38,563 bases of DNA. Origin: Candidatus Woykebacteria bacterium RBG_13_40_15 (GTDB lineage: Bacteria > Patescibacteriota > Microgenomatia > Woykebacterales > RBG-16-39-9b). The stretch is taken from contig MHCP01000011.1 in the NCBI GenBank assembly GCA_001816655.1, positions 1 to 38,563 on the forward strand, read 5' to 3'. Every line of letters starts with the position of its first letter. Position 1 is the stretch's first letter. Shown here one piece after another: positions 9,001 to 33,514 of the stretch. A model generated the notes under the pieces. The model did not search any database and was not told where the DNA came from. It saw nothing but the letters and a program-made list of their open reading frames with translations. The position numbers and the translations under genes are program-made.

Positions 9001-10276
9001 TGGGGTAACCAAAGTCGGAGCCAACTCAACTGTTAAAACTTGTAGCTCAACTATATCCACGACCACATTTGCCTATCTTAGAATCGAAGTAAGAAGTACT
9101 ACTGATGTTCGTTTCTTTGTTGATTCCAATGTTGGTGATGGCATAGTTGAAGAAGAATGTGGAACTAGCACAACCTATATCTATACAGCAGGCGGTTTGG
9201 CAGGAAATATTATGCATGCCTTTGTGGGAAATCTCTATGTTGATTATTTCCGAGTCTGGCAAGATGATTCCATCCCAATAGATTCGGATAGCGAAGAAGG
9301 GCTAGGCTCTAGTGACAGCACCGAAATTATTACTCCAACTTCCGGACATGACATTGCCGGCAGATATTCAGCGGCTGACGCTACAAGTCTATCCGCGGCT
9401 GATTTGGTCAGTTTAGACACAAGCGGAAAGGCTATACTTTCTGGTCAATCGTACGATCCTAATATTCTAGGGGTAATTTCCACTTCGCCGAACCAAATCC
9501 TTGGTTATGATGGCGATTGGACAACCGTAGAAGTATCTCTAACCGGTCACACTCCTATTAAAGTCTCAACGGAAAATGGGGCGATACAGCCTGGAGACCC
9601 ACTCACTAGCTCCTCTACTCCCGGTGTGGCAATGAAAGCCACGCAAAGCGGGCCGATTGTTGGAAAGGCGCTTGAGCCATTTGATGGCTCAGTATCAAGT
9701 ATCACGTATCAAGTATCAGGTGAAGAGTTTGCCGGAGGCAAGATTATGGTGTTTGTGAGCGTGGGATGGTACGTTGCCCCGCTTGGCGATAATCCGCCGG
9801 CTGGCGAAGGTAACTTCACTAGTATCGACGTGGGGACTTTGACGGCTGGAACGATAAATAGCCAAGTGCTTTTTGTCGGCGATCGTAAGCTTAGCATGGC
9901 TGCCACTGGCGCACTAATAGTCGATGGTGAAATGAATATCCTTGGCGACCTCTCGGTTGGAGGCGACCTAAAAGTAGCAGGAGCGATAGATACGAAAGAA
10001 TTGACTACGGAAAAGCTAAATATTGCTACTCCTTCTGCTGAACCTGGCGAAATTTCTAAAGCATCGACTGGAATTGAAATCTTAAAAGCTGGTGAAAATG
10101 TTGTTACTATTAAAACTTCCGCAGTAACAAGCGATTCTTTGATATTTGTCACTCCTACTACTGTGACTGATAAAGTACTTTCTGTAACTAAAAAGATAAC
10201 TGGAGATAGCTTTGAGGTAAAGATATTGAATCCATCGGACCAAGATATACAGTTTAATTGGTGGATTGTGAATTAG
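2..10276 (+). CDS. Giant surface/fibre-like protein, 5'-truncated (>3400 aa): beta-rich fibre repeats, right-handed beta-helix (~3770-4870), LVIVD repeats (~6310-7300), peptidase-G2/IMC-like domain and conserved FNWWIVN tail
   Basis: The frame of ORF 431..10276 is open back to base 2 (TVCLENLANCLGSGDIEAVG...RLGIGTDNPGAKLDVRG), so the true start is upstream of the window. Motifs: AIAALPAGGGVVYLLEGTY followed by NNTISGN-type repeats; six VxVSGRYAY[VE]..(F/L)DV repeats; LGVISTSP..ENGAIQPGDPLTSSSTPGVAMKA. Confidence 0.9.
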   Translation, partial: TVCLENLANCLGSGDIEAVGDVTSGEAFTDAGSNGTSLWFNNSGFQGQLTVGTLSDSNKTYTLPNLTGAVALSVGSLTNGSVLFAESGLISQDNATFYWNNSTDRLGIGTDNPGAKLDVRGNAIFNEDSGDYDFRVEGDNEAYMIMVDAGTDTLGLGDNVQADTRLYIGFDTLSVTQDASSEFVDINPALTEAGSGTHSIMAGLNIQALTLNDGAGDTTTATTLRVAGAPSGATNNYALWIDDGTSRFDSLVQLGVDEPALTPNIAGSLRLISADDNAYSTTITADTQTQNINYTLPPNDGSPNQVLLTDGFGDLSWSTVTGAGGVDINGTPTTGQATFWFDSNTIEGENAFFWGKNNNVLIIGASSPSDAAGSHLQIFDNSGTAQLNLLYDGSNSTSFTVDSSGNLTVNATGTKTVISDDLQVSGNDILNSGGNSAIDVNSRTLQNGAWTANSTANPGFTVGDGSTGYLKVGGSTISDAAGNLTLNSDTTILAISDATIRGVGALTIESTTSDLTLDSGSNIVKIADATLLGNGALTVSSGGSGNLTLDSASDTIVIAATDTTIQRVAAGTFTIDLNDANTTYFDIINGGAGVADLKINGTPLSDTDATPGAALVGTYDEFTNSNSANVQDVLDDLDAAITSGGGSAIWTDSTPGTGAGVIYPTYNTDDLAIGGTIVNASPFGVDESENTIYIGEGSNSNGTITFKASDGDTGNLAYNIDDRFAFTGGGVLFDFGAAEQFIIDATDPNSSLAGAIVDIDVDSLTDSGIGIDLNYESLLTNNAGTEMQYALSVSPVQGSTGASGTHVLYGIYVQNLATSGVPSGTNTEYGMRIGTGYDYGLQIDDGVTTALLLASNDGDAASGITFGTGANAVNLYRSANNTLRTNGNLIVDLDLTVSGGDIIGANKASIDLGETAEGQISFLSNNDIDNYIYLLTESDLPQIFWEGSETNDPGVRVNSDGKLEYRDDNDASWTTFESISVGSVTLQTAYNNDADSATAEILMTASDGSIVFKTIGGATDTQFQIAAASAPEIDLVNITNTGFATTTNGVDGLSIDFVTGDGASVTNNALNIAVTSGGTASGDIVNGINLSLSGAGGTETAINIGSGWDKVFVTNADPVASATSSLIELGAALVGGSASGTYLGINADVGYAGDFLNFQVNGTTSAKLTASGDLTLAGGDIVGAGSTAIDIGEATGGDITFSNSAAATNDTLALRPYAAGAATFKGILTSNDLTADRTWAFPDATGTVALSTTDKRVATKIVAASNSSNPDQADFKADGAGGTDDAVTIENAIAALPAGGGVVYLLEGTYYIGDVASDGVDITKSNVSIIGVGQATILQRGWDATSDDGVITVGDGGSATVTGVTIANLSINGCRAVAGSCSVAYTGSQNFGIYFNYKVTYSTVRETYLYSSDGDTIFLQGSTTTNNIIQANSFNSNNGDNIVLMLAVKNNVLGNNISNGPCIFLSTSANNNTISDNYCQSGSNGIEISASSNNTISGNVIQSTLASGIASIYLFGASNNTVTANTISSAGDVGISIEGSSNNNIITANVINEVGSDPDDGIFMVDSDNNVISSNRLLDASSSRYGINISNSTSNYNHLIANEITGSGFASGKINDAGTGTTIQQRDQFEIESTRTLGTLLSFGIPQSTTLIGALTGTDINLFNSLIATNQSVTGQYIRLPTVTNTGTGTYNYAGLSIPDIVGGLTQNNAAGTTNFYGLDLDIPAITETSGTINAYGIDISAGAAGAGSTLRALNIGNASGASTDKTAINIGSGWDTGVSIAEIAGAGSGIAITGTGARTGNLIDLTTDETGDGDLIDINVNGAKAAGGNIIEIETNAAVASDIISITTKAAATSGNLIDLNIGTVADSGDAFNLTIGSLATAAQALVVSNAAASSTAGWLMDVDTSAAWTQPAIDVDLNTAISTGNFLDITYNNVAHTGNAIDLNMGTNVAGNAIDISIAGSQNAILAILGAISSGTANGLNVTPPDITTAGGTINGINIGSITTSGGADTAINIGSGWDASIGIVDNVANAFTIKQGSNSYFDISTTDLTPSLTLDVPVQGGTSTNLNIGNNTGNTAVNLKAGTGNVNVTGNLQALASTNFNTQLVGGAELGVSGAKVYVSGRYAYEVQDSDGGAGYEFRIYDVSNPASPTAVGGTNLGYLAQGLHVSGRYAYVTNNSDDSTGNEFRIFDVSNPSSPTEVGGYNLGAHGWGVFVSGRYAYVARDSAAGNDLIIFDVSNPASPNPVGGVDLGQGAPKVYVSGRYAYVVKGSSVGTCSGADQTGCEFVIYDVSNPTSPTTAGWYDLGMTTGYAWDVYVSGRYAYVVKANNGIANDFLIFDVSNPTSPTVAGGVNLGYNGYAVYVSGRYAYVVQSTDSGTGNELRVFDVSNPASLSEVGGYNLGVDGWGVFVSGRYAYVSRDTSGSDELLVLDVTGIETTSLLAHAFEAGNGQFRDDLIIGNQLQVTGGAVIGTDGLLSNGPVGISAINTANSGLDALTLSGTLAAFNGSDTFRGLYLNYINTASHTGSNTINLFDIANIAGQANATLNAINIGQLTSNTAAAETAINIGSGWDMAINLADSSSIGLGASAGRLAFALNGASADTVTLNSANFVVQNDLLVNLSAIDHGDSAPQGLKLPQANTLTAISGGGEGYIAYDLDGNNLSYFDGSSWLAVGTSNWTDGGTYLYPNNYESVRVGSDATHYIDIAHDGTDATLSFALTNALNINIGTIDLSAQTVDVTLNAAADALNFDSNTLSIDASNNRVGIGLNNPSAVLDVTNSNTTNLLSLSTTGAVTTPTALAISATSGSGIITNAIDVSDTEIVNAINLGENNILMTDSGTVNWRDGTYNLFTFKDFSTQFGGAALAGAWIDKNSYFGEEFTRERAQVSITGNFTFGDTTAWGSSEVGVCTWDIQDNTANGILQQTFSGGTACLLYLGDDAGTASLIFNASNRPIIQMKVKPSGSGAAYDFWVGLGDSNSATTTPPTNGIYFTNNDSGYWTGVTKVGANSTVKTCSSTISTTTFAYLRIEVRSTTDVRFFVDSNVGDGIVEEECGTSTTYIYTAGGLAGNIMHAFVGNLYVDYFRVWQDDSIPIDSDSEEGLGSSDSTEIITPTSGHDIAGRYSAADATSLSAADLVSLDTSGKAILSGQSYDPNILGVISTSPNQILGYDGDWTTVEVSLTGHTPIKVSTENGAIQPGDPLTSSSTPGVAMKATQSGPIVGKALEPFDGSVSSITYQVSGEEFAGGKIMVFVSVGWYVAPLGDNPPAGEGNFTSIDVGTLTAGTINSQVLFVGDRKLSMAATGALIVDGEMNILGDLSVGGDLKVAGAIDTKELTTEKLNIATPSAEPGEISKASTGIEILKAGENVVTIKTSAVTSDSLIFVTPTTVTDKVLSVTKKITGDSFEVKILNPSDQDIQFNWWIVN

Positions 10277-10304
10277 TTAAAAGTTCAAAGTGCAAAGTTA
10301 AAAG
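10277..10304. repeat. Heptamer array, left arm of four-helix-bundle cassette 1
   Basis: TTAAAAG TTCAAAG TGCAAAG TTAAAAG fills the gap between the giant-gene stop codon and the next ATG. Confidence 0.8.
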
Positions 10305-10307
10305 TCT

Positions 10308-10688
10308 ATGAGAGCTAATAATAATGAAGATTTTAGAAGAAAACTAATAAGTAGGACTTTTGTTTTAGCTAAGAAAGTAATTCACTTAGTAGATAAATCC
10401 CCTAACAAGAGGTCCGCTTGGGTAATTTCCGACCAATTAATAAGGGCCACAACAAGTATTGGAGCAAATATCATCGAGGCGCAAGCGGCAAGCAGCAAAA
10501 AGGATTTTATTAACTTTTTGAATCATGCTCTGAAAAGCGGAAACGAAACAAAATTTTGGTTATCTCTAGCAAAAGAAATCATGCCAGAAACTGCTGATCA
10601 AATCAGCGATCTTCTAAAAGAGGTGGGAGAGTTAACTAAAATTCTCGGATCAAGCATTTCGACACTTAAAGGAAAGAACAAACTTTGA
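10308..10688 (+). CDS. Four-helix-bundle protein (TIGR02436 / 23S rRNA IVS-protein family, Avd-like fold)
   Basis: 126 aa with DQLIRATTSIGANIIEAQAASSKKDFINFLNHALKSGNETKFWL, the characteristic family motif. Confidence 0.9.
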   Translation: MRANNNEDFRRKLISRTFVLAKKVIHLVDKSPNKRSAWVISDQLIRATTSIGANIIEAQAASSKKDFINFLNHALKSGNETKFWLSLAKEIMPETADQISDLLKEVGELTKILGSSISTLKGKNKL

Positions 10689-10716
10689 ACTCTAAATTGC
10701 AATTTTTAACTTTGAA
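10683..10716. repeat. Heptamer array, right arm of cassette 1 (inverted)
   Basis: CTTTGAA CTCTAAA TTGCAA TTTTTAA CTTTGAA; CTTTGAA is the reverse complement of TTCAAAG in the left arm. Confidence 0.7.
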
Positions 10717-10731
10717 TTAAAAATAAGCCAC

Positions 10732-18173: not shown

Positions 18174-18194
18174 ACTACTTATCCTTTTTTACTT

Positions 18195-18223
18195 TTGACT
18201 TTTGACTTCAAATATGGTATAAA
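18195..18223 (+). promoter_or_regulatory. Sigma70-type promoter for the SAM-fibre gene
   Basis: TTGACT-N17-TATAAA with an extended -10 TG. Confidence 0.65.
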
Positions 18224-18273: not shown

Positions 18274-21200
18274 ATGAACATTCTGCCCAACGACGACCCC
18301 GTTGGCGGGGTCGTTTTTAAATATAAAGAGTACTTAAAACAAAGCGGTTATTCTACTCCAACCGTTAAAAACTACCTCTCAGATTTACGCTATTTTTGTG
18401 ATTGGCTGAAAAACCATCACAAGGATTTGTTTTCACTGACAAAAGGCGATCTTGATAATTATCAATTTCATCTCTCGATAATCTTCAAAAATAAGCCGTC
18501 GATAAACTCCCGCAAGGCTTCATCGCTTCGCGGGTTTCTGTCCTGGGCTACTAAAGAGCAGATACTTTCTATTCAAGAAACAGCATTAATTCAAACTGAA
18601 AGCAAGCTCACCTCAGCAAAAAAATTAACTTGGTTTCTATCCCTCATCAGCTTCAAGCCAGCCCGCGAAAGAATAAGCCATTTTACTAGCTATAGACCAG
18701 ATTGGTATCACCGCTACCATCGCTGGAGTTTTGCAGCCACTCTCCACTATATAGTCTTGATAAGCTTTCTAGTTGTGGCTGGTGGTTCTTTGATATATTT
18801 CTATATATTTAGACCAGAAATGAACCAGACAAAAAAGGAGTTTGTAGCTGAACTTGGAAGCGTCCTAGCAGCTTCCCCACCAAAGATTCTTTCCTTTCAA
18901 GGTAGACTTACTAACCCAACCACAGGACAGCCAATTATTATTGCTACCAATATAGTATTTAGAATTTACACTTCTACCAGCGGGGACACTGGTAGCCCCT
19001 GTGCCAATACTTGCAAGTGGGAATCGAAAACCTGGAGTGTAACCCCAGACGCAAACGGTATTTTCTCGGTCACTCTTGGGGACACAGGAGCTAGTGATAC
19101 AGAGATTCCAGACACCCTTTTTACTGATAACCCAACTCTTTACTTGGGTGTTAAGGTTGGGGCTGACGCTGAGATGGCCCCAAGACAGAGAATTGCTTCT
19201 TCTTCTTACGCTTTGAACTCTGATGCCCTTGAAGGTTTTCACGGATCCCAATCCCCCGGGGCCAATCAAGTACCGATCCTTGATGGAAGCGGCAACTTAA
19301 TGTTCGCCGGGGCCGCGACAATTGGTACTAGCGCAAATGCCCTGACGCTAGATTCAGCTTCGGGAACACTTGCTCTTGGCTCAGGAACAACGACAATATC
19401 TTCGGCTGGAGCTTTGACTCTAAATTCGACTACTAGCAGCGCTGTTACTCTAGATTCTAGTACCACAGGGACAATTAATATTGGAAACAACGCTAATGCC
19501 AAGACAATTAATATCGGCAATGCCACAGATACTACCCTAGTCAATATTGACTCAGGAACCAGCGGGGTAACTATCGATTCTACCGGTACCGGAGACATAC
19601 TGGTTAATTCAACCGATACTCTTCTACTAGATTCGGCTGGGGTCTTAGAGTTGAATTCGTCAGCTGGAGTAATCTCAATCGGCAACGATGCTGTGGCCCA
19701 AAATATCAATATTGGTACTGGAGCCGCTGCACGAACAATTACAATTGGAAATACAACCACCACTACCGGAATAGTCTTAACCAAAGGCGCCTCTGGTGAA
19801 ATTACCCTTACTGGCTACGATGCTACCTGCACTGCTTTGGAAACTGATGCTGATGGGCACCTAAACTGCGGAACTGACGATGGCGGAGGTGGCGCTCTTC
19901 ACCAAATTACTGCCGCCACTGGTGACAACAGCATAAACAATGCCGCATGGAATCAAGTCTGGAACTGGCAGTTGGCAGGAGCAGAATCAGGCTTTAAATT
20001 TGCCGAAAACGCTGCGTCAACGGGAGGCGGAACAAATGATCAATTTATAGTCGATATTGCTACCCTAGCAACCTCTACGGCAGGACCTCTTCGGGTGACC
20101 TCAAATTCGATAGATACTTCCGATATTGTCTTTAATTTAAACAGCCTTGGGGACATAGAAATCCAGGATGCAGGAGCTGCTTTTGCTACTTTTGCTGACG
20201 ATGGGACGATCACCTTAGGCAAATCTGCCGCAGCATCTGCAATCAACATCGGCACTGGAACAGCCGGGAATACAATTTATATCGGAACTGACAATAGCAC
20301 CAAAGACACTATTTCTATTGGCTCGGCTTTAGATGACGTAGCCATTACTGGTGATGATTGGTCAATGACTAATGCGGGCGTGCTGCAATTTGGAGCAACC
20401 GGAAGCTATGATACCAACCTTTACCGCTCCGCAGCTAACACTTTAAAAACTGATGATTCTATTATTTCCGCCGGACTTGCTTCAGTCAGTGGTAGCAATT
20501 CAGTCTCAAATGTTCCCTACAATCTTCTAACCGACAAGGCTACCACTAACCGAGTGGTCAACCCTTCTTTTGAGGTTAATGTTACTGACGGCTGGCAGGC
20601 TTATGGTGGTGCTGTAGCGGGCGATCTTTCCCAAAACGCAACGCCGTATGTGGGAACTTATTCAATGAGAATTTACAAAACAGGGGCTGCTATTAACGAT
20701 GGGGCACAAACCACAACAATGCCAGTAAGTGCTTCAACAAAGTATGTTGCTTCTGTCTTTGTCATAGCAGTTTCAGGCTCGCCAACATTTAAAATCAGCT
20801 TGACTGGTGACAATAGCGGGCAAACTCAAAGCGGCGAATACACTGCTAGAGCAGTAACTAGATGGCAACGCTTCTTTGTTTATAAACAAAGCAATAGTTC
20901 AGACACAACATTTACTTTTGAAATTTATTCCTCGGCTGCTCAAAATTTTTACATTTACGTTGATGCAGTTCAGCTTGAACAAGTTTCCTGCAATAAGTCT
21001 TCTTGTGCCACTTCCTACGCTGATGGCTCTCTCGGACCAGAGTATGCTTGGACAGGCACGGCCCACAATTCAAGTTCGACTAGAACTACCGGTATTAAAT
21101 ATTTGGGTGGGGGCACTAGCGGGCCGGATCTCTACATTGGGGGCGGTGCTTATTTCGAAGGCGGAAGCGGGGATATTGATCTAAATGGTACGATTAACGC

Positions 21201-22896
21201 TACCGATTCTTCGATATTAAGTTTATATTTCTTAGGCACTCAGTACTTAAGCCCCAACCAATTAGCTATAGCCGACGTTAGTGGGGATGGCAAGGTTAGC
21301 CTCGATGATGATATTATACTTTCTTCTCTTATATACGACACCTATCCCAACAAGTACGACCCGAAAAGATTAATCGGTAATTTATACGGTGCCGGAACTA
21401 CGACACGGTTTGATGTCAACGGAGATATGGACGTCACCGGCAGCACGATTACTTTTGGAAGCTTTGCCAGCTGCGGAGCACTTTCTACAAACAGTTCCGG
21501 CGCTCTTGTGTGCAATACCGGTACCGGCGACACGGCAACTTTTACTGACGCCTCTCCAGGTGTCGTAGCAGATTCTGATGCAACAGAAATGTTTAATGAC
21601 GCCACACGGCCAAATATAACTCCAAATTCAGCTACTCAAACTGTTTTAGTTCATGCATCAGTGCGATTGGACGCTTCAGGAATAGCTGATGCAATAGCGG
21701 CTTTCAGAATTGTCCGTGAGGATGATGGCGGTTCGACTACACCTGTCTGTGATGGTACTGACCCTCAAGTAGGAAATACAATGATCGCTGGTGATCTGTT
21801 ACTATCAACCGATTTTAGTCAAGCCCAAGCTACAGTCTTGGACGCCCCGGCCAGCACCGCCGCCGTCTATTACACTGTCTGTACCAGCACAGATACTAAT
21901 ATGGGCGCGAACGTGCCGACTGCAACAAGTGTGACGGTAACATTAATTGAACTTGGGGCCGACCTTGCGGAAAATTACTATACGACTGATGATTCAATAG
22001 CCCCTGGGCAAATAGTTTCGACTGACAACTCAATACCCGCCGGGGCGGAAAAAACCACCAGAGCTTACGACTCGCAAATCCTCGGCGTTGTTTCCACTGC
22101 TCCTGGAAAAATTCTGGATGATGGGCTAGGCCTGAACTTTGGAAGGGCAATTCCTGTCGCTTTGGTCGGTCGAGTGCCGGTAAAAGTGAATGGTGAAAAC
22201 GGACCCATCGCAGTCGGCGACCTGATAACTAGTTCGTCCACTCCCGGAGTGGGCATGAAGGCTACAAAGGCAGGTTACGTGATCGGGCGGGCTTTAACCT
22301 CCTTCAGCGGTCAAGGAGAAGGTGCTGTAGTTGCTTTCGTAAATACCCAGTACGCAGATCCTGCGAATTTAGAAGCCGAGGGAAATTTGTTAGATTTAAC
22401 CGATTCTAGTTCAACTCCTAGTGCAGAGGCAACCAACTCCTCTTCTCTCAAACTTGACACAGAAAATAATATTGTCGCAACACTTTCTAGTGGGACCAGA
22501 TTTGTCTGGGTCAATTCGCTTGGTAAAGCGCTTGCCTGGATTTCTGATACAGGCGAGGCTTTTTTTGAGAAAGTTACTGCCCTGGTTGGTAATTTCCAAA
22601 AATTGATCTTTGGTGAACTGGTCGCTTCCAAAGACTCGCAAAATGCCGGTCAGGCCAGTTTCGAGCCTGATCAAACCGAAGTGGTTATTGAATCAGAAAA
22701 AGTGACCGAAGACTCTCTAATCTACGTTACCGCGGCAACTAAAACTGACGGTATTTCCCTTTACATTAAGGAGCAAAGGCCTGGGGAAGGCTTTACAGTG
22801 GCTCTGGAACGATCTAGCGGTGATCTACCAAACGAGGCAACAGCTTCAGCAACTCAAGCGATCAAGTTCAATTGGCTAATTATTAACCGGGAATAG
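18274..22896 (+). CDS. Fusion protein: integrase/Xer N-terminal SAM-like domain, TM helix, then a large extracellular fibre (CBM-like, dockerin-like, peptidase-G2-like, FNWLIIN tail)
   Basis: YKEYLKQSGYSTPTVKNYLSDLRYFCDWL..SINSRKASSLRGFLSWA; TM ~18730-18810; ILSFQGRLTN domain; NRVVNPSFE..IYVDAVQLE; GDIDLNGTINATDSSIL..ADVSGDGKVSLDD; GADLAENY..VALVGRVPVKV. AGGA lies 7 nt before the ATG. Confidence 0.88.
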   Translation: MNILPNDDPVGGVVFKYKEYLKQSGYSTPTVKNYLSDLRYFCDWLKNHHKDLFSLTKGDLDNYQFHLSIIFKNKPSINSRKASSLRGFLSWATKEQILSIQETALIQTESKLTSAKKLTWFLSLISFKPARERISHFTSYRPDWYHRYHRWSFAATLHYIVLISFLVVAGGSLIYFYIFRPEMNQTKKEFVAELGSVLAASPPKILSFQGRLTNPTTGQPIIIATNIVFRIYTSTSGDTGSPCANTCKWESKTWSVTPDANGIFSVTLGDTGASDTEIPDTLFTDNPTLYLGVKVGADAEMAPRQRIASSSYALNSDALEGFHGSQSPGANQVPILDGSGNLMFAGAATIGTSANALTLDSASGTLALGSGTTTISSAGALTLNSTTSSAVTLDSSTTGTINIGNNANAKTINIGNATDTTLVNIDSGTSGVTIDSTGTGDILVNSTDTLLLDSAGVLELNSSAGVISIGNDAVAQNINIGTGAAARTITIGNTTTTTGIVLTKGASGEITLTGYDATCTALETDADGHLNCGTDDGGGGALHQITAATGDNSINNAAWNQVWNWQLAGAESGFKFAENAASTGGGTNDQFIVDIATLATSTAGPLRVTSNSIDTSDIVFNLNSLGDIEIQDAGAAFATFADDGTITLGKSAAASAINIGTGTAGNTIYIGTDNSTKDTISIGSALDDVAITGDDWSMTNAGVLQFGATGSYDTNLYRSAANTLKTDDSIISAGLASVSGSNSVSNVPYNLLTDKATTNRVVNPSFEVNVTDGWQAYGGAVAGDLSQNATPYVGTYSMRIYKTGAAINDGAQTTTMPVSASTKYVASVFVIAVSGSPTFKISLTGDNSGQTQSGEYTARAVTRWQRFFVYKQSNSSDTTFTFEIYSSAAQNFYIYVDAVQLEQVSCNKSSCATSYADGSLGPEYAWTGTAHNSSSTRTTGIKYLGGGTSGPDLYIGGGAYFEGGSGDIDLNGTINATDSSILSLYFLGTQYLSPNQLAIADVSGDGKVSLDDDIILSSLIYDTYPNKYDPKRLIGNLYGAGTTTRFDVNGDMDVTGSTITFGSFASCGALSTNSSGALVCNTGTGDTATFTDASPGVVADSDATEMFNDATRPNITPNSATQTVLVHASVRLDASGIADAIAAFRIVREDDGGSTTPVCDGTDPQVGNTMIAGDLLLSTDFSQAQATVLDAPASTAAVYYTVCTSTDTNMGANVPTATSVTVTLIELGADLAENYYTTDDSIAPGQIVSTDNSIPAGAEKTTRAYDSQILGVVSTAPGKILDDGLGLNFGRAIPVALVGRVPVKVNGENGPIAVGDLITSSSTPGVGMKATKAGYVIGRALTSFSGQGEGAVVAFVNTQYADPANLEAEGNLLDLTDSSSTPSAEATNSSSLKLDTENNIVATLSSGTRFVWVNSLGKALAWISDTGEAFFEKVTALVGNFQKLIFGELVASKDSQNAGQASFEPDQTEVVIESEKVTEDSLIYVTAATKTDGISLYIKEQRPGEGFTVALERSSGDLPNEATASATQAIKFNWLIINRE
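18293..18318 (+). terminator. Intrinsic-terminator-like hairpin within codons 7-15 of the SAM-fibre gene
   Basis: ACGACCCCG-TTGG-CGGGGTCGT-TTTT. Confidence 0.55.
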
Positions 22897-22924
22897 TTGG
22901 TAGTTGGTATTTAGTATTATGTAT
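22894..22924. repeat. Heptamer array, left arm of four-helix-bundle cassette 2
   Basis: TAGTTGG TAGTTGG TATTTAG TATTATG TAT, starting at the stop codon of the fibre gene. Confidence 0.8.
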
Positions 22925-22928
22925 AAAA

Positions 22929-23309
22929 ATGAGAACAGAAAAGATAAAATCTTTTACTGATTTAACAGCATGGAAAGAGGCTCACAAATTAGTACTCGCG
23001 ATTTACAAAGTTGTAAAAACATTTCCAAAAGAAGAAAAATTCTGTTTAATTGATCAGATCAGGAGGGCATCTATTTCTGTTTCCTCCAATATTGCCGAAG
23101 GTTTTTCAAGGAAATCGGATTTGGAAAAGAGCCATTTTTACTATCAGGCGCTTGGTTCTTTAACTGAATTACAAAACCAATTATTAGTCGCAAGAGACGT
23201 TGGTTACATTAAAGAAAAGGCCTTTCTAGAACTAGCTAATCAAACAATAGTAGTCAGCAAATTGATTAATTCTTTAATAAGATATTTGAAGGGGAAAAAT
23301 AATACCTAA
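22929..23309 (+). CDS. Four-helix-bundle protein (TIGR02436 / 23S rRNA IVS-protein family)
   Basis: SFTDLTAWKEAHKLVLAIYKVVKTFPKEEKFCLIDQIRRASISVSSNIAEGFSR..GSLTELQNQL. Confidence 0.93.
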   Translation: MRTEKIKSFTDLTAWKEAHKLVLAIYKVVKTFPKEEKFCLIDQIRRASISVSSNIAEGFSRKSDLEKSHFYYQALGSLTELQNQLLVARDVGYIKEKAFLELANQTIVVSKLINSLIRYLKGKNNT

Positions 23310-23335
23310 TACTTACTACTCAATACTGAATACTA
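23301..23335. repeat. Heptamer array, right arm of cassette 2 (inverted)
   Basis: AATACCT AATACTT ACTACTC AATACTG AATACTA; AATACTA is the reverse complement of TAGTATT in the left arm. Confidence 0.8.
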
Positions 23336-23728
23336 ACTCCCCGGCACTTCATCTCGGGTATAACCAGCGAGGATTCCTTTAACCATATCGGCGACTTCTT
23401 TTGGTTCGTGTTCACTTTTAACGATGTACTTTACGGCTCCCTTGGAAAGAGCCGTCTCAGCATCCTTCTCACCGGACAAATTGGTCAACATCACTACGGG
23501 AATTCCTTTTGTTTCAGGATCGGCCTTGAGCCGCTCCAGAACCTGCAAACCGTTTAGTTTGGGCATCATAATATCCAAAAGAATCAAGGTTGGCTTTTCC
23601 AACCTGGCTTTATCCAAACCTTCTTGGCCATCTTTGGCCAAAGAAATCTCATACCTCTCAAAGGAAAAAATCTTTTCGTAAAGCCTGGAAATCAACGGAT
23701 CGTCTTCGACTATCAATATTTTAGCCAT
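23333..23728 (-). CDS. Single-domain response regulator (receiver only)
   Basis: KILIVEDD, LILLDIMMPKLNG, VVMLTN, YIVK; no output domain. Confidence 0.93.
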   Translation of the reverse strand: MAKILIVEDDPLISRLYEKIFSFERYEISLAKDGQEGLDKARLEKPTLILLDIMMPKLNGLQVLERLKADPETKGIPVVMLTNLSGEKDAETALSKGAVKYIVKSEHEPKEVADMVKGILAGYTRDEVPGS

Positions 23729-23745
23729 AACAAATACATTATATA

Positions 23746-25326
23746 TCAGCTTTTAGCGTTGGGCAAGGTAAAGAGGAAGATCGATTCCTTGCCAACTTGA
23801 GAGCTTTCCAAATAAATTTTTCCTCCCATTGCCTCGACTAATAATTTAGAGCTGTAAAGCCCAAGGCCTGTACCGGTAATCGTATTACGGGTAAGAATTT
23901 TTTCACCGACTTGCTGGAATCTCCTGAAAAGTAGCCTTTGATCTGGTTTAGAAATTCCAGAACCAGTATCTATCACTCGTACTGCTAGAGAGCCATTCTC
24001 CTTTTTAACTGTAACTTTTACCCCACCTTTTTCAGTAAATTTTATCGCATTGCCGATTAGATTAAAGAGAACCTGACTAGTGCGATTTCTATCAGCTGAA
24101 ACTAACGGTAACTGTATACCCTCTTTTTCTAATCGTAAATAAAGGCCTTTTGAACCGGCAGTATTCTCTAGCTGCCTTATTGTTTCTTTAATTAAATCTA
24201 GCAGATCAAATGTCTCTTTATGCAATTTAGTTTTTTTCTGTTCAAACTTTACAACATCTAAATAGTCGTTTACGAGCCCGATTAGGCGGACGGATGATTC
24301 GTGAATGTCGGAAACCATTTCCCGCAAAGATGGATCTTTCAACTGGAACGGAAAGTATTGCTTAATCATAGCTGCATTGCCTCGTATTGCAGTCAGTGGC
24401 GTTCGCATATCATGGGCAGCTACAGCAAAAAATTCATCTTTTGAACGCTCAAGTAGTTTTGCTTCTGTAATATCCTCAATTAAAACAGCTGTCCCGATAA
24501 ATTCCCTGTGGTCGTGGGGCATAGTTATGGGGTTCAAAAAAATTCGTAAAAATTTACCCTCAAGGAGTACTTCCCCAAATTCATATTGGTGCCTAGTTAG
24601 TTTGGCTTTTTCCAAGGCTTTATGTAAATTTAAGCTGCCTAATAATTTTTTCTCGATCTCACTCACTTTCGAAACCTGCTCTAGATCCAGTATTTCCTTT
24701 ACTTTCTCATTTATAGCTAAAATGCCATCTTTTGGCCCAGTTAAGACAAAACCAATCGGTAGATTGTCTATAGAAACTGCCAACTTTGCTCTTTCCCGCT
24801 GCAGTTGAATATAACCAAGATCCGTCTGTTCTTTTGCCTCTTTCAAGGCTTTTTGTTCTCTTCGTAATTCTTTAGTACGCTCCTCGACCCTACTTTCCAT
24901 AATGGCTTTTTCTTTTCTTAGTAGTTCCTCACTAATTCGTAGGGACTTCTCTGTTTGCTTAGATTTATCTCCCAAATCTTTTAACCGCCCTGTTACAACA
25001 CCAACAAATAACACACCGGCATGCCAAAATAGTCCTCCTCCCCCTATCAAAGAGGCCAAATTTGTCTCGCCAGCTAAAGTAAAAAGGAAAATATTTACAG
25101 GTAGGGAAAGGATACCGATAATTAATCCTCCCCATACCCCAAAGAGCCAACCTGCAGTAGTCACCGGCAATATCATTAAAACGGCTAATGGTAACCCGAT
25201 AATAGGCTCGATGAGCACAATAATTACTCCGTAAAAAATTACAGTAAGAAGAAGGGTAAGCCATTTAACCCAACCCGACCTAATACCCAGAAGTAAATTT
25301 CTATTAAAATCATCCATAAGTGACAT
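23746..25326 (-). CDS. Membrane sensor histidine kinase (TM, coiled coil, PAS-like, HisKA, HATPase)
   Basis: AHDMRTPLTAI (H box), NLIGNAIKFT (N), DTGSGI (G1), LFRRF (F), GTGLGL (G2). Confidence 0.93.
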   Translation of the reverse strand: MSLMDDFNRNLLLGIRSGWVKWLTLLLTVIFYGVIIVLIEPIIGLPLAVLMILPVTTAGWLFGVWGGLIIGILSLPVNIFLFTLAGETNLASLIGGGGLFWHAGVLFVGVVTGRLKDLGDKSKQTEKSLRISEELLRKEKAIMESRVEERTKELRREQKALKEAKEQTDLGYIQLQRERAKLAVSIDNLPIGFVLTGPKDGILAINEKVKEILDLEQVSKVSEIEKKLLGSLNLHKALEKAKLTRHQYEFGEVLLEGKFLRIFLNPITMPHDHREFIGTAVLIEDITEAKLLERSKDEFFAVAAHDMRTPLTAIRGNAAMIKQYFPFQLKDPSLREMVSDIHESSVRLIGLVNDYLDVVKFEQKKTKLHKETFDLLDLIKETIRQLENTAGSKGLYLRLEKEGIQLPLVSADRNRTSQVLFNLIGNAIKFTEKGGVKVTVKKENGSLAVRVIDTGSGISKPDQRLLFRRFQQVGEKILTRNTITGTGLGLYSSKLLVEAMGGKIYLESSQVGKESIFLFTLPNAKS

Positions 25327-26947: not shown

Positions 26948-26954
26948 CTCTTTA

Positions 26955-27017
26955 GATCTAAGTTATATGATGTAAGATTTAAGATATTTTAAATTCCTGC
27001 ATCTTCGATCTTACATC
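26955..27017. repeat. Empty heptamer-periodic inverted repeat
   Basis: GATCTAA GTTATAT GATGTAA GATTTAA GAT ... ATCTTCG ATCTTAC ATC; GATGTAAGAT and ATCTTACATC are exact complements. Confidence 0.75.
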
Positions 27018-29251
27018 TATAATCCTACTAATTTACCGAGTATTTCCTTCTCTGATAATACCCCAACCACTACCCTTTTGATAATCCCCTTTCTATCGAC
27101 AAAGTAGTGCGTTGGCAGATTTTGTAAATTAAAGGCTTCAACTGTTTCCCCATCTTTATCTACAAGTACATTTATCTCATACCCAGATATTTTTGAATAA
27201 ACTCTTATCTTAGCCGCGCTTTCAAACACAGAAATTGGAACCACGTTTATATCTTTATTCTTCTGAAGGGCGGTCAAAGCAGAAAATTGCTCTTTAGCTG
27301 GAGGCGCCCAGGTTGTAACAAAAGTAACGATGGTTGGCCTGCCTCGCAAATTTAATGAACTGGTTTCTCCTCCACCTACAGACGGCAATAAAAACGAGGG
27401 CACTTCTTTTTCGATCAGGCTTTTATTTTCTAAACTCGTCTTTAGCTTTAGATCTGTTTCGATATTAATTTTTTGAACCGATAGACTCGGTAAGGAAACA
27501 GCGATTGGCCCTAATTTTAATTTAAAAGTTTCCGCCAAGTGTAAATCGGTAATAAGTGGGATAGATTGTTTCGTTTCAAAAATATCACTAACCAAGGTTT
27601 GGTAGTCCGCGGCTTGCACTTTTAAGTAGTACTTTCCAACCGGAACAAACAGTTTGAAATTGCCTTCTTTATCGGTTACTTGAGGATTCTCCTGACCGTA
27701 AGGAGCACCGTCCCAAACCACCCAGTTATTCGAATCTGGCTCAAGGTAGTAAAGGGCCACTCTCGCCTTCTCGATTGGCCGATTATTTTTTCCTCCTAGC
27801 ACTCTGGGGCTCTCACTGACAAAAACTGTGTTCAGACTTCGTTGAAGCTTGTTACCGGCACCATCAACGGAATTTGCGGTTAAGTTGTAAGTTCCCGGTT
27901 TTTTGAAGCTTAAAATTCCCGACCAAAGACCGCTGTCAGCAGATTTTGTCAGAGAAAACAGACTACCGGCGCTTTTATCATTATTAATATCCTTAGCAGA
28001 AAGGTTAATACTAGTTGGCCCGCCAACTGCTGATAGAGTAATTTTTTGATCAACTCCGGTCAAGGAAACAAGAACGCACTGCTCACTTGGCTCGAGTACT
28101 TGCGGGCCAATAGAAACTACGTTGCCCCCAACTATCGGAGGCAGCTGATCAATAATTAGAGTAACTTTATTCGAATCCGCCGTGTTACCGGAGGTATCAG
28201 TGGCACGCGCAAGAGTAATATAATTTCCATCCTCTAAATTTTGGGGGGTAAATTCAAAGGAAACTTTCTTCCCACCAAGACCATCAACTTTGTCAGCCGG
28301 CAGCCAATTTCTTCCGTCGTCGGTCGAATATTCAATGCTAAAAATACCAGCATTATCCTCGGCCTCACCTTCTATTTTGGGGGCTTCCTTGAATGGGCCA
28401 TTTGGGACGGTAGAAATTCTAATTGTGGGTGGGGTTTTCTCGGTTTGTTTCAGAGATTTCTTTGTCAGAAAACCTACCGATGGGGCTACTGGACTTCCCA
28501 AAGTCGGGGTAAGAAAAGTGTTGTCTTCAGAGTAGCCGCTGTTACCTGCTACGTCTGTGCTTTCGATAGTAAAATGGTAGGCTGTGTCTACGCTTAAGTT
28601 TGTTAAAACAATGCTGTGGTTTAACGTAGGCGTAGGATTGCTCTTTTCATTTCCATAGTTGTCATCAAGGCCATAGTAAACCGTAGAAGTTGCCGGCTCG
28701 TCAGTCGTCCAGGAAATGGTAATCGAGTTAGAAGTCAAGTTTGATAAACTAATGTTATAAATCGTTGGCGGCGTTGTATCTGGTGCCTCGCCACTAATTT
28801 CTGTACCTAAATCCCCACTGCAACTAAGGGGGTTCGCCCCGTTTGGATCATCAGAAGCTTCTACAGTCCAATTAGCTGCTGGAGCTTGAGAACTACCCGA
28901 TGTGGCTTGGACGATAAAGGAGAGGCTCTCTGATGGGTTTAGGGCCCCTTCCCGTAGTGTTACTGTAATATCAGTGAAGTTAACACTCCACCCATTAACC
29001 TGATAACCTCCAATTCTAAAGTTTAGGGAAGGCCGGGTCACTTTTATCCACCGGATTGTATTTAAATCTGTATTATTTATCTGAAACTGAAAATCGGTTG
29101 TACTTGTTGGGGCTACGCTGTGAGGTAAGACACTAGCTGTACAAGAATAGATATTGGCGTAAGCTTTCGGCCAACTAACCCAATTAAACTGTAACAAAAT
29201 CAATAGGGTTACAAGTAACAGCGTTAGTGTTTGTTTACGTAACTTGGGCAT
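27017..29251 (-). CDS. Secreted multidomain protein: FN3/Ig-like domains, carboxypeptidase-regulatory-like domain, C-terminal TlpA-like thioredoxin fold without Cys
   Basis: Signal peptide; ITISWTTDEPATSTVYYG; ARATDTSGN; NPQVTDKEGNF; LRGRPTIVTFVTTWAPPAKEQ..LPTHYFVDRKGII. Confidence 0.8.
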   Translation of the reverse strand: MPKLRKQTLTLLLVTLLILLQFNWVSWPKAYANIYSCTASVLPHSVAPTSTTDFQFQINNTDLNTIRWIKVTRPSLNFRIGGYQVNGWSVNFTDITVTLREGALNPSESLSFIVQATSGSSQAPAANWTVEASDDPNGANPLSCSGDLGTEISGEAPDTTPPTIYNISLSNLTSNSITISWTTDEPATSTVYYGLDDNYGNEKSNPTPTLNHSIVLTNLSVDTAYHFTIESTDVAGNSGYSEDNTFLTPTLGSPVAPSVGFLTKKSLKQTEKTPPTIRISTVPNGPFKEAPKIEGEAEDNAGIFSIEYSTDDGRNWLPADKVDGLGGKKVSFEFTPQNLEDGNYITLARATDTSGNTADSNKVTLIIDQLPPIVGGNVVSIGPQVLEPSEQCVLVSLTGVDQKITLSAVGGPTSINLSAKDINNDKSAGSLFSLTKSADSGLWSGILSFKKPGTYNLTANSVDGAGNKLQRSLNTVFVSESPRVLGGKNNRPIEKARVALYYLEPDSNNWVVWDGAPYGQENPQVTDKEGNFKLFVPVGKYYLKVQAADYQTLVSDIFETKQSIPLITDLHLAETFKLKLGPIAVSLPSLSVQKINIETDLKLKTSLENKSLIEKEVPSFLLPSVGGGETSSLNLRGRPTIVTFVTTWAPPAKEQFSALTALQKNKDINVVPISVFESAAKIRVYSKISGYEINVLVDKDGETVEAFNLQNLPTHYFVDRKGIIKRVVVGVLSEKEILGKLVGL

Positions 29252-30693: not shown

Positions 30694-30776
30694 AGGTTAG
30701 GTAGTATTAATTGATTGTTATATCAAACAAAATAAGGGAGTTAAATATTTAAAATTTGTTGCTAGATGTGTGCCTG

Positions 30777-30840
30777 TTCTAGGTTTTAGGTTTCAAATTT
30801 TACGCCCTAGACCTTAGAACTTAGAACTTAGAACATAAAC
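30777..30840. repeat. Empty heptamer-periodic inverted repeat after rho
   Basis: TTCTAGG TTTTAGG ... CCTAGAC CTTAGAA CTTAGAA CTTAGAA CATAAAC. Confidence 0.72.
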
Positions 30841-30842
30841 CC

Positions 30843-32078
30843 CTATCCCATTTCTTTGTGCAAACTGTCAAGAAATTCTTCGTTAGAAGCTGTTTTTGCA
30901 AGCCTATCCAAGAAAAGTTCAGTTCTTTCCACCTCATTTAAGGTATCAAGCATCCGCCGCAGCCTCCAAATCTTTTGTAGGTGTGTAGAGTCAATCAAAA
31001 GCTCTTCATTTCGTGTGCCAGAACGTGAGACATCGATTGAAGGAAAGATTCTTCGCTCTGCTAATCCTCTATCGAGGTGAAGCTCCATATTTCCAGTTCC
31101 TTTGAACTCCTCGTAAATCAAATCGTCCATCCGGCTTCCAGTATCAATCAAGGCTGTAGCGAGGATAGTTAGAGAACCACCCTGCTCGAAGTTTCTAGCG
31201 GCGCCAAAAAAGCGCTTTGGGGGATAAAGAGCTGCAGGATCAAAGCCACCACTTAGAGTTCGTCCAGATGGCGGCAGAGCTAAATTGTAAGCACGACCAA
31301 GTCTAGTAATAGAATCAAGCAAAATTACTACATCTTGGCCTGCCTCAACTAACCTTTTCGCCCTCTCTAGGGAAAGTTCGGCAATTCTTGTTTGATGCTC
31401 GGCTGGATCATCGAAATTTGAGGAATGAACCTCACCTTTGATACTTCGAGTTAAATCTGTAACTTCCTCGGGGCGTTCACCAATTAAGACAGCCATAAGA
31501 ACCGCTTTTGGAAAATTAGTAGAAACACCATTTGCCATTTCCTTCAAAATCGTTGTTTTTCCAGCTTTTGGGGGTGAAACAATCATCCCACGCTGGCCAA
31601 AACCGACAGGGACGAGTAAATCAATAACACGTGTAGAAACAGGGGTTTTGCCAGTTTCTAGCTTTAGCAAGCGATTCGGATAAACTGGAGTAAGTTGTTC
31701 GAACCTAGGTCTTTTCGCTGTTTTTTCGACATCAAGGCTATTTACTTTAAGAACCCTTAGCATACCAAAATAGCGTTCTGTTTCTTTTGGAGGGCGCACT
31801 TCGCCTTCTACCTCATCGCCAGGCCTAATATCAAAACGGCGGATTTGAGATTGGGAAATGTAAATATCATCGGTACTTGGATTTAAACCATTAGCTCGCA
31901 AAAAACCATACCCTTCCGGCATTACTTCAAGAACGCCTTTTCGAGTCTCGCTTGATCCAGAAATAGACTCATGAGGTATTTCTATTTCTTTCTCTTCTTC
32001 AAGAACAACTTCAGGGGTTTCTTTTTTTGAATCTTCAGTTTTTTCTTCTTCTTTTGGAGTAGTTTTTGTTCTTGGCAT
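30843..32078 (-). CDS. rho: Transcription termination factor Rho
   Basis: [60 protein letters not shown]. Probable start ATG 32078; the track start at 32105 falls inside a palindrome. Confidence 0.97.
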
Positions 32079-32093
32079 ACAAGTAGAATTTAG

Positions 32094-32112
32094 CCTGCCT
32101 GCCAACAGGCAG
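32094..32112. repeat. Copy of the CCTGCC palindrome upstream of rho
   Basis: CCTGCCTGCCAACAGGCAG, similar to 14655-14675. Confidence 0.65.
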
Positions 32113-32258
32113 AACTTAATAATTAAGAATTAAGAACGAAAAATTAATTTCTTTATAATCAACGGTCAAAATTTCCATCGCTATTGGGAAAACAAAACTT
32201 GCGAGGTTAAAAATCACCCACATTTAATCACACAAAATAGCATTTGTCAACACTATTG

Positions 32259-32327
32259 ATCTAGGTTATATGTTGTAGGTTCTAGGAAAAACCAATTTCA
32301 TACATCCTAGACCCTAGAACCTAAATC
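32259..32327. repeat. Empty heptamer-periodic inverted repeat after the LPxTG gene
   Basis: ATCTAGG TTATATG TTGTAGG TTCTAGG-N12-CATACAT CCTAGAC CCTAGAA CCTAAAT. Confidence 0.8.
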
Positions 32328-32331: not shown

Positions 32332-33477
32332 TTAGATCTTTCTCTTCAAAAAGAGAACAGCGTATCCTGCTGGAACACTACCTAAAAGCAATAGTAAACC
32401 TGCTCCAGGACCGGTGTTTGGAAGCTCCGGTGTAGGAGTTGGTAATACTTCAGGTTTAACTACCTTTACTTTGAAGGTAATAAATCTTTCAAATTCGAAG
32501 CAGCCTTTAATATTGCCCAGTGAAACACCGCTGCTTGTAAACAGCTTACTTTGGCCATTTACATCAGCTACAAGTACCCCACCACTAGTATCAGCGTGAA
32601 CAAAGGTTTTAGTTGTACCAGGAATGTATTCTAGACGACCAACAAAAGGTGTATTAACTATAGCTGTATCGCTAAGGGTGCTGAAATTGTCCCCTAAAAC
32701 AAAGGCACGGTTAGTAAAGCTTTGTGCTTCGGCGGTTGGAAGAGCGTCTTTAACAATTACGTTTTCTGCGACACTTCCAACAGGCTTGTTGTGAACCATA
32801 ATTCGATATTCCAAGATATCACCAGCGTTTGCATTCACACTCTCAGAAAAACCAGTGTTTTGAGTAATATTGTTTACCTCTTTCTTGGTTTCCATACTAA
32901 CAGCTGGTCTTGGAGTAGGAACGCTAGCGTCAACAATATCAGCATAGAAAACGTACCAGTGTTTGTGAATGCTTTCTCCACCATCAATTTTATTAATTTT
33001 CATACCTTGAGGGGTAATAAGTGGAGACAAACCATTTACATCTGGAATAGCTACACCAACACTATCTTGATAACCGTAAACTCTAGTACTACCAGCTCTG
33101 TAAATAAGCTTTTTGCCAGCTGGAAGGCTTATGTTTGAATCAGAATACATTGAAACTGTTTGATCAGTATCAAGTATAGCTCTGTTCTTAACGTTGCCAG
33201 TTTGATCAAATGGGAATTCGTCTCTTAAAAGACCATTGATATAAGTTGTCTCTGTTGGATTATATACGTAAATTCTGAAAATAACTGGTTTGGAACTATC
33301 TGAAATTATCAGATCTTGAGTATAAGAACCAATACCTTCTTGCTTAGCTTGCTTTATAAAATCTATTTGGCTATCGGCCCCTGCTTTACCTAAAAAGGGC
33401 ACGCTTACAGACCCAAGCATAAAAGCTAGGGTAAAAGCGACTATTGAACTAACCTTCAGAATCTTTTGATTTAACAT
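32332..33477 (-). CDS. Sortase-type LPxTG surface protein with two DUF11/pilin-like repeats
   Basis: Signal peptide; ANAGDILEYRIMVHN..AENVIVKDALP; two repeated YRAGST/YIPGTT units; ELPNTG, hydrophobic stretch, KRKI. Start 33477 is favoured by promoter position. Confidence 0.8.
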   Translation of the reverse strand: MLNQKILKVSSIVAFTLAFMLGSVSVPFLGKAGADSQIDFIKQAKQEGIGSYTQDLIISDSSKPVIFRIYVYNPTETTYINGLLRDEFPFDQTGNVKNRAILDTDQTVSMYSDSNISLPAGKKLIYRAGSTRVYGYQDSVGVAIPDVNGLSPLITPQGMKINKIDGGESIHKHWYVFYADIVDASVPTPRPAVSMETKKEVNNITQNTGFSESVNANAGDILEYRIMVHNKPVGSVAENVIVKDALPTAEAQSFTNRAFVLGDNFSTLSDTAIVNTPFVGRLEYIPGTTKTFVHADTSGGVLVADVNGQSKLFTSSGVSLGNIKGCFEFERFITFKVKVVKPEVLPTPTPELPNTGPGAGLLLLLGSVPAGYAVLFLKRKI

Positions 33478-33485
33478 ATGGCGGT

Positions 33486-33514
33486 ATTTTAGCATACTCT
33501 ATAGGTCTTGTCAA
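33486..33514 (-). promoter_or_regulatory. Sigma70 promoter; near-leaderless transcript
   Basis: Minus strand TTGACA-N17-TAAAAT, 8 nt before ATG 33477. Confidence 0.7.

Follow-up and report, generated by a model that had tools for sequence, protein, structure and literature searches.

What is the role of a small gene that stands between inverted arrays of heptanucleotides, immediately behind a giant gene? The question is raised twice in the DNA studied here, a stretch of 38,563 nucleotides (nt) that we call the window and that is contig C11 (MHCP01000011.1) of the Candidatus Woykebacteria bacterium RBG_13_40_15 genome (983 kb in 36 contigs, 97.6% complete, 40.7% G+C). A genome this small is typical of bacteria of the candidate phyla radiation (CPR). 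We concentrate on the second of the two arrangements (cassette 2, 22894-23341) and compare it with the first (cassette 1, 10275-10726) and with relatives in other genomes. We find that cassette 2 belongs to a very widespread module of gene plus repeat, in which a gene of the PF05635 family is bracketed by inverted arrays. A first-pass annotation, made from the letters of the window, had described both cassettes; its observation is confirmed and its interpretation is partly supported.

A PF05635 gene between inverted heptamer arrays

The left (5′) arm of cassette 2 (22894-22924, plus strand) consists of four to five degenerate heptamers, TAGTTGG TAGTTGG TATTTAG TATTATG TAT, and is rich in G and poor in C. 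Four nucleotides lie between its end and the ATG at 22929, where an open reading frame (ORF) of 126 aa begins (22929-23309, plus strand). The right (3′) arm (23296-23341, plus strand) has five to six heptamers, AATACCT AATACTT ACTACTC AATACTG AATACTA ACTCCCC; its sequence complements that of the left arm, and it starts within the final codons of the ORF (..N N T stop). TRF detected period 7 at 22894-22909 (2.3 copies, 100%) and at 23308-23336 (4.1 copies), and an inverted-repeat search returned five inverted pairs (I1-I5), for instance 22899-22923 with 23317-23341 (25 nt, 80% complementary). Self-identity at lag 7 is 0.81 in each flank and at most 0.61 at lags 5, 6 and 8-10, and the complementarity between the arms scores 42 (z 3.5 against 30 shuffles). 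When 22884-23346 is folded as RNA, the minimum free energy and centroid structures both join the arms in a stem of ~31 bp that closes the ORF, with a G+C clamp at its base formed by CCGGG (22887-22891, plus strand) and CCCGG (23340-23344, plus strand). This fold has a z of -3.1, and equally good folding was seen in 1 of 100 shuffles. Cassette 2 is a genuine feature and not a product of chance; the arms of inverted heptamers that had been described around the 126-aa ORF are confirmed by the sequence itself, TRF, the inverted pairs and the lag-7 value.

The cassette 2 protein is a clear member of the S23p family, annotated as a 23S rRNA intervening sequence (IVS) protein. It matches PF05635 (23S_rRNA_IVP) with an E-value of 1.3e-36 and 125.5 bits against a cut-off of 33.8, and TIGR02436 (‘four helix bundle protein’) with 120.4 bits against a cut-off of 24. 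The nearest named relative of the cassette is from a Candidatus Woesebacteria metagenome-assembled genome (MAG). The AlphaFold2 model (pLDDT 91.6) has four helices, at residues 2-29, 34-60, 64-90 and 96-125. The best Foldseek match is XCC0516 (2gsc; template-modelling (TM) score 0.80-0.92, root-mean-square deviation 0.6-0.7), with BT_0352 (2rld) also at the top, followed by Avd inside the RT-Avd-RNA particle of a diversity-generating retroelement (DGR; 8ub7, TM 0.78), where RT is the reverse transcriptase. The entries 2gsc and 2rld contain five chains apiece, and the pentamer is also stated in PMC4990558, which cites Lin 2006. By analogy with these solved relatives, the cassette 2 protein probably forms a ring pentamer. 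The profile search gave PF05635 and, weakly, bAvd, with no Y1 (HUH) domain, and no catalytic domain was found in the protein.

Cassette 1 has the same architecture with a different heptamer, as the first-pass annotation had it. Its left arm (10275-10307, plus strand) starts at the stop of a gene of at least 3281 aa and holds 4.4 copies of AGTTAAA-type heptamers. The 126-aa ORF that follows (10308-10688, plus strand) matches PF05635 (E 8.3e-22, 77.9 bits) and TIGR02436 (97.0 bits), and runs into a right arm (10677-10726, plus strand) of AACTTTG AACTCTA AATTGCA ATTTTTA ACTTTGA ATTAAAA, giving the cassette an AGTTAAA / AACTTTN repeat type. The two proteins are 25% identical, in line with their description as divergent paralogues. 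Both carry LKGKN near the C-terminus, as had been noted. This sequence is the basic C-terminal tail of the family and not a product of the arm; a relative (L030) ends in ..LKGK and has another repeat. A further array, AGTATCA x4 at 9691-9718, lies inside the coding region of the gene before cassette 1, ~580 nt upstream of the gene end.

All five PF05635 genes of this genome are bracketed by inverted heptamer arrays, with a different unit in each. At the orthologous site of a related genome, G006 (L258:3190-3590), a giant gene ending in ..RFNWLIVNKE is followed by a cassette and convergent response-regulator (RR) and histidine-kinase (HK) genes. The PF05635 ORF is split there by a frameshift and the TAAG-type arms are retained (CTTAGAA CTTACAG CTTAAAA CTTACCA); the absence of arrays at orthologous cassettes, which had been named as evidence against the first-pass reading, is thus not what this site shows. 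Synteny, followed via the neighbouring histidine kinase, is kept only in G006, and the neighbourhood differs in G003, G008 and G002. In G008, the ORF L259:3225-3884, which starts MPIRKTSFFENGFYHVYNRG..., adjoins the orthologous response regulator; we take it to resemble the Y1 transposases of the IS200/RAYT type. In four metagenome DNA runs, no joints, insertions, deletions or empty site were found for cassette 2, and two contigs bridge the cassette unchanged.

Bracketing by inverted arrays is a rule of the PF05635 family across phyla. We collected 114 loci: the five of this genome, 29 from 29 related genomes and 80 from many phyla, including groups of the CPR, Bacteroidota, Planctomycetota, Verrucomicrobiota, Nitrospirota, Elusimicrobiota, Desulfobacterota and others. 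Two loci at contig ends were excluded and 112 were scored with a strict automated test, which demands the same period on both sides with a score of at least 0.66 and an arm complementarity of at least 30. It was passed by 73 of the 112 loci, with period 7 in 57, period 8 in 15 and period 4 in one; among the 39 failing loci, many have shorter arrays when viewed by eye. In the genome of cassette 2, only 3 of 991 genes pass, two of them PF05635 genes, which leaves 1 of the 986 other genes. A criterion using lag 7 only is satisfied by 49 of the 112 PF05635 loci and by 3 of 100 control ORFs of the same loci, and a lag-7 value of at least 0.7 in both flanks is reached by only 4 of the 991 genes. The arrays have a median of 4.1 copies (range 2-11); a median of 9 nt separates the left array from the ATG, and right arrays begin around the stop codon. 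G exceeds C in the 5′ arm of 67 of the 73 cassettes, and the opposite is seen in the 3′ arm. One exception in layout is L086, from a Kiritimatiellaeota MAG, in which the unit CGTGAAT flanks the gene on both sides as a direct repeat.

We also considered stop codons in all three frames as the cause of the period of 7 or 8, and set this aside as a weak tendency with a small excess over composition. Such stops are present in 38 of 66 left arms against 19 of 66 on the antisense strand; 51 of the 66 units contain stop triplets, where composition predicts 44.6, and 9 of 66 left arms lack any stop.

Co-variation of repeat and protein

Does each protein have a repeat of its own? This had been proposed for the two cassettes, with co-variation of protein clade and heptamer across genomes as the check. 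We examined 104 cassettes, after excluding ten for contig ends, stops or a length above 160 aa, and asked if the left arm of one cassette can pair with the right arm of another. Cross-pairing falls steeply with protein identity: all 24 pairs at ≥70% identity show it, as do 48% of the 61 pairs at 60-70% and 15% of the 289 pairs at 50-60%, and below 50% identity the share is 0-2%. The co-variation backs the proposal of a cognate repeat for each cassette. The ten cassettes nearest to cassette 2 come from several CPR classes at a mean identity of 58%, and nearly all have (A/T)GTAT-type units. The period behaves similarly: 12 of 14 period-8 cassettes have their nearest relative among the period-8 cassettes, and label shuffling gives a mean of 2.65.

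Common descent contributes to these figures, since relatives share labels and linkage adds to the co-variation. It does not by itself explain the contrast with neutral sites. Fourfold-degenerate sites have reached saturation in the cassette 2 clade (203 of 632 sites are identical, a fraction of 0.32 where 0.30 is expected), and the consensus heptamers agree at 5.17 of 7 positions within the clade, against 3.81 in unrelated cassettes. The heptamer is kept despite this saturation, so selection acts on the repeat sequence within a clade, and between clades the sequence differs. Judged from these comparisons, both the sequence and the period of the repeat go with the protein clade and are held by selection. 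The earlier statement that structure and not sequence is conserved is therefore half right: the architecture is shared and the repeats differ between cassettes, and within a protein clade the sequence is conserved as well.

Heptamer arrays beyond the gene and the setting of the cassettes

Heptamer arrays track the presence of PF05635 genes genome-wide. This genome contains 44 period-7 arrays of at least 3.5 copies, compared with 1-5 in Markov shuffles, and other periods are far behind; intergenic DNA, 11% of the genome, contains 40 of 91 period-7 arrays. In sequence sampled from 21 genomes of the same class, eight without the gene have 4 arrays in 848 kb and 13 with the gene have 331 in 2.54 Mb (Spearman rho 0.87, PF05635 against arrays). 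These are related genomes of our own choosing with two negative genomes left out, and for six positive genomes some contigs were picked for length from the hit table and hence contain cassettes.

Several of the arrays in this genome form gene-less hairpins immediately behind stop codons, and three such hairpins lie in the window. The hairpin AAGATNT / ATCTTNN (26954-27017; RNA fold z -4.7) comes directly after the stop of the gene 27017-29251 (minus strand), GTTCTAG.. / ..TTAGAAC x3 (30776-30834) lies 8 nt after the stop of the gene 30843-32105 (minus strand), and TCTAGGT.. / CCTAGAC CCTAGAA (32255-32325; z -3.9) directly follows the stop of the gene 32332-33495 (minus strand). Solitary direct arrays occur near gene starts at 18186-18208 and 32111-32147. 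Where gene-less arrays of the genome stand at gene borders, the nearest gene end is 3′ in 21 of 36 and 5′ in 15 of 36.

The 16S rRNA gene of this genome (C32:8415-8505; L256:716-806) carries a 69-nt insertion at a helix tip, at about position 188 of the Rfam SSU model. The insertion is IVS-like, lacks an ORF and consists of inverted heptamers (GGGAGCA GATATCA GTTAGCA GTGAGCA ... TGCTCTC TGCTTTC TGTTCTC). Further heptamer hairpins precede the 16S gene (C32 7988-8058) and the 5S gene (C32 14397-14575). Elsewhere, two inverted heptamer arrays of 4.6 copies each (C35:3542-3573 and 3957-3988, 383 nt apart, complementarity 44) lie in frame within an intact minus-strand ORF resembling a 5′-3′ exonuclease and are translated as ..KLQTPNSKLQT.. 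and ..DLKFEIGNLRF..; another hairpin overlaps the end of this ORF.

The first-pass annotation had linked both cassettes to giant fibre genes. The genes are indeed giant, with 1540 aa before cassette 2 and at least 3281 aa before cassette 1; a fibre identity is unsupported by the domains found, which are CBM_4_9 and dockerin in the 1540-aa surface protein and also LVIVD and beta-helix. The link is real in this lineage. The genome has three genes of at least 1500 aa; a cassette comes after two of them and a gene-less heptamer hairpin after the third. The C-terminus of the 1540-aa protein, ..IKFNWLIINRE, resembles that of the other giant protein, ..IQFNWWIVN; gene ends of the form ..FNW.I.N also stand before cassettes in G006, G013 and L042, and in a metagenome contig of a relative such an end is followed by another heptamer array. 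Outside the lineage, cassettes lie tightly between other co-directional genes. Twelve are at sdhA|sdhB in Bacteroidota (L058, L079, L085, L091, L093, L096, L098, L099, L101, L104, L109 and L112), where the names, read from conserved ends, denote the flavoprotein and iron-sulfur genes of succinate dehydrogenase/fumarate reductase. Five are at gmk|nadD in Flavobacterium, and others at atpD|atpC, leuA|leuC, nuoI|nuoJ and HK|RR. The sdhA|sdhB proteins are mutual nearest relatives within Bacteroidales, and their repeat units vary by genus. In Flavobacteriia, cassettes ~70% identical with shared TAGTAAT/TAGTGAA repeats are found at two sites, sdhA|sdhB and gmk|nadD. The giant-gene link is a habit of the lineage and not a trait of the PF05635 family.

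Around cassette 2, the TAG stop of the 1540-aa gene (18274-22896, plus strand) is the opening triplet of the left arm. On the other side, the stop codon of a convergent response-regulator gene (23333-23728, minus strand) is within the outer edge of the right arm, and a histidine-kinase gene (23746-25326) lies upstream of the response-regulator gene. Residues 16-96 of the 1540-aa protein (18274-18570) match Phage_int_SAM_1 (E 8e-8), which is odd beside CBM and dockerin domains; given this N-terminus, the predicted ORF may be fused or mis-started.

Possible mechanism and alternatives

The closest precedent is the IVS in the 23S rRNA of Coxiella burnetii, which has a 28-bp terminal stem and an S23p ORF. 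Three tandem heptamers plus a degenerate one immediately precede the ATG there, their copy number differs between strains, and RNase III cuts have been mapped within the stem (Warrier et al., PMC4990558). ORF-bearing 23S rRNA IVSs are also reported from Leptospira, Brucella and Xanthomonas (PMC4990558). Cassette 2 shares with the Coxiella element an S23p/PF05635 ORF in the loop of a terminal-inverted-repeat stem (~31 bp here), tandem heptamers directly ahead of the ATG, the lack of a good ribosome-binding site, and a host gene for RNase III (143 bits in this genome). Unlike an rRNA IVS, it is not at a helix tip of 23S or 16S rRNA; the rRNA operon is on a different contig, and the cassette lies between the genes for the 1540-aa protein and the response regulator. 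It further differs from the Coxiella IVS in that cleavage of its stem is presumed and that the genome has five copies, each with a different heptamer. In the Coxiella paper, the heptamers are a local feature of one IVS and not a family rule (PMC4990558).

At about an even chance, we favour reading cassette 2 as an IVS-type cassette located outside rRNA: its stem would be processed as RNA, and its protein, a pentamer, would read the repeats. RNA-stem processing together with repeat reading by a pentamer is the most likely mechanism, as judged by homology and co-variation. A long stem, built from two inverted arrays with about five 7-nt repeats each, would hold the PF05635 (S23p/Avd-like) gene in its loop. 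The cassette would have no promoter of its own and would be transcribed by read-through from the giant gene; no promoter-like site was found between that gene and the cassette ORF. In the transcript, the arms would pair into the ~31-bp stem; the ORF would be closed off by it, the stretch ahead of the AUG would be covered, and the stop codon would lie within the stem. RNase III, by analogy with homologous ORF-bearing 23S rRNA IVSs, would cut the stem, freeing the cassette RNA from the host mRNA and setting the 3′ end of the latter. The protein, as a ring pentamer like RNA-bound Avd, may bind its own array with about one repeat per subunit, and this binding could compete with or guide stem formation and processing, leading to autoregulation and maintenance of the element. 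Gene and arms would move and be inherited as a unit over evolution, and copies from which the ORF has been lost would persist as gene-less heptamer hairpins after other genes and inside 16S rRNA.

Several findings weigh against this reading. Transcription, cleavage and translation of the cassette are all inferred, as is binding of the protein to the repeats, and the authors of the Coxiella study considered it probable that S23p is not made in vivo (PMC4990558). The RNA fold of cassette 1 is no better than shuffles (z -0.36), and neither is that of one of the three gene-less hairpins in the window (z -0.14). Array length is broad, with no sharp five, so the match of a pentamer to five repeats is suggestive. 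The polarity of the arms would be identical on both strands of any hairpin; it is therefore a real constraint and does not distinguish RNA from DNA. Among the non-Watson-Crick positions of the paired arms, 46 are G·U and 40 are A·C, which does not favour pairing in a sense RNA over complementarity at the DNA level. Gene-less arrays match the heptamers of the five resident cassettes within one mismatch in 7 of 30 cases, compared with 7.8 ± 4.0 for a null of foreign cassettes, and with no match beyond chance a strict model of one protein with one dispersed repeat family fails here. Moreover, all cross-genome counts include related genomes and loci, which are not independent of one another.

Some of these findings would suit a mobile element acting at the DNA level, which we consider rather unlikely. 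The arrays would then be terminal inverted repeats, that is, ends with multiple protein-binding sites, and the protein a DNA-binding accessory through which host enzymes move or copy the cassette; the gene-less hairpins would be derivatives resembling miniature inverted-repeat transposable elements, and RNA pairing a by-product. The lack of a G·U excess over A·C is consistent with it, symmetric recognition of the ends would predict the G-rich 5′ arm seen on both strands, and arrays are abundant only in gene-carrying genomes. One protein clade with its repeat occupies two sites in Flavobacteriia, and unrelated cassettes (29% identity) are found at atpD|atpC in two lineages. Insertion sites in the 16S and 23S genes of CPR bacteria likewise hold PF05635 ORFs, beside homing-endonuclease ORFs (PMC11270868). 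However, the protein is PF05635 alone with no catalytic domain, the conservation of sites over whole orders, as in the 12 sdhA|sdhB loci, means that movement is rare, and the four metagenome runs with their two bridging contigs gave no joint or empty-site variant. Gene-less arrays without the heptamers of resident cassettes also argue against it, and a period of 7-8 nt would misfit the 10.5-bp helical repeat of double-stranded DNA. Improbable in our view is a passive role, in which slippage-prone repeats serve as gene-end signals through three-frame stops or as hairpin terminators and stabilisers, while the gene tolerates or prefers such sites and its protein is inert on the repeats. The position of gene-less arrays at gene borders (3′ end 21, 5′ end 15, of 36), periods that are not multiples of 3 and the three-frame stops in 38 left arms all accord with such punctuation, as do heptamer arrays and convergent pairs with unknown function in Xanthomonas and Nostoc (PMC4692102) and heptamer arrays in Beggiatoaceae, cyanobacteria and Bacteroidetes (PMC4679880). 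Yet the enrichment of stop triplets is slight, with nine left arms stop-free, and no T-run follows the cassette 2 stem. Punctuation also leaves unexplained why 73 of 112 PF05635 genes are bracketed against 1 of 986 other genes, why a clade with saturated synonymous sites keeps its heptamer, and why related genomes free of PF05635 lack arrays.

The resemblance to Avd raises a different alternative, that the protein helps a reverse transcriptase to diversify the C-terminus of the giant surface gene. In the established DGR layout avd follows the target gene, and cassette 2 sits right behind a large surface-protein gene. The fold and a distant sequence likeness also point to Avd (bAvd PF22296, 30 bits; 4dwl, 8ub7; TM 0.75-0.78 for the shared four-helix bundle). 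According to the titles of the structure entries, Avd forms a pentamer in the solved particle and is in contact with structured RNA there. The cassette 2 protein differs from Avd in its sequence (~9% identity) and its heptamer flanks, and its scores are below the cut-offs (28 bits against 80 for the Avd equivalog NF033474, 30 against 40 for PF22296). The only RVT_1 match in the genome (C15:53122-53709) is on another contig, 24 kb from the nearest PF05635 gene, and blastn with the last 400 nt of both giant genes returned self-matches alone, so there is no template/variable repeat pair. In a genome that is 97.6% complete, these results bring the DGR explanation close to refuted, and we rejected it. 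The RNA of the solved RT-Avd-RNA particle presumably includes the 3′ end of the message of avd itself. As a separate observation, the RVT_1 match (L115) has a period-14 array inside it (53359-53399) and a GCAGAAA array 2 kb upstream.

Short-repeat systems offer further comparisons for the favoured IVS-type reading. Genes for RAYT transposases are flanked by repetitive extragenic palindromes (REP) or their REPIN form, and the repeat type follows the gene clade. The PF05635 cassettes are similar: a small gene stands between short repeats in inverted orientation, gene ends carry gene-less hairpins, and the repeat follows the clade. They are unlike RAYT-REP in lacking a Y1 transposase domain, in having tandem arrays rather than single palindromes, and in that, in this genome, the heptamers flanking the resident genes are not those of the gene-less arrays. 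The short tandemly repeated repetitive (STRR) sequences of cyanobacteria are intergenic heptanucleotide repeat arrays. Other known arrays are TAACTGA in Beggiatoaceae, cyanobacteria and Bacteroidetes (PMC4679880) and GGGAATC in Xanthomonas and GGGGAYT in Nostoc (PMC4692102); the Xanthomonas study lists 70 convergent heptamer pairs, potential hairpins of unknown function (PMC4692102). The arrays described here are likewise head-to-tail 7-nt units, mostly intergenic, with few copies and far above chance. Those studies treat one heptamer per genome, whereas here many heptamers are tied to a gene family. In the available text of the two papers ‘S23’ is absent, and in that of PMC4679880, the one searched for them, so are ‘four-helix’, ‘23S’ and ‘intervening’. 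We found no literature linking the whole PF05635 family to flanking heptamer arrays, or giving a family-wide rule of gene and array, in a search that left most subscription journals and supplements outside.

These comparisons allow a broader proposal, which we put forward tentatively. PF05635 pentamers may be the trans-acting partner of bacterial heptanucleotide arrays, each clade reading its own 7- or 8-nt unit with about one unit per subunit, and the proteins may create, spread and maintain arrays genome-wide, including helix extensions in rRNA. The arrays concerned would include the cyanobacterial STRR, GGGAATC in Xanthomonas, TAACTGA in Beggiatoaceae and those of CPR bacteria.

Our study bears on two open questions. 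The S23p family is very widespread, often multi-copy and represented by two crystal structures (2006-2007), and its function is unexplained; the over-represented heptamer repeats of bacteria are likewise unexplained, by the statement of the papers that describe them (PMC4679880; PMC4692102). The bracketing, the co-evolution of protein and repeat, and arrays that are abundant only with the gene make both questions experimentally approachable. Stems inside core operons (sdhAB, atpDC, nuoIJ) and rRNA also affect gene calling, operon prediction and assembly. The results point to a new sequence-specific reader of nucleic acids with a modular logic of one subunit for one repeat. If PF05635 pentamers are indeed the trans-acting partner of the arrays, they would constitute a protein-repeat system with a reach like that of RAYT and REP, but with a non-enzymatic reader.

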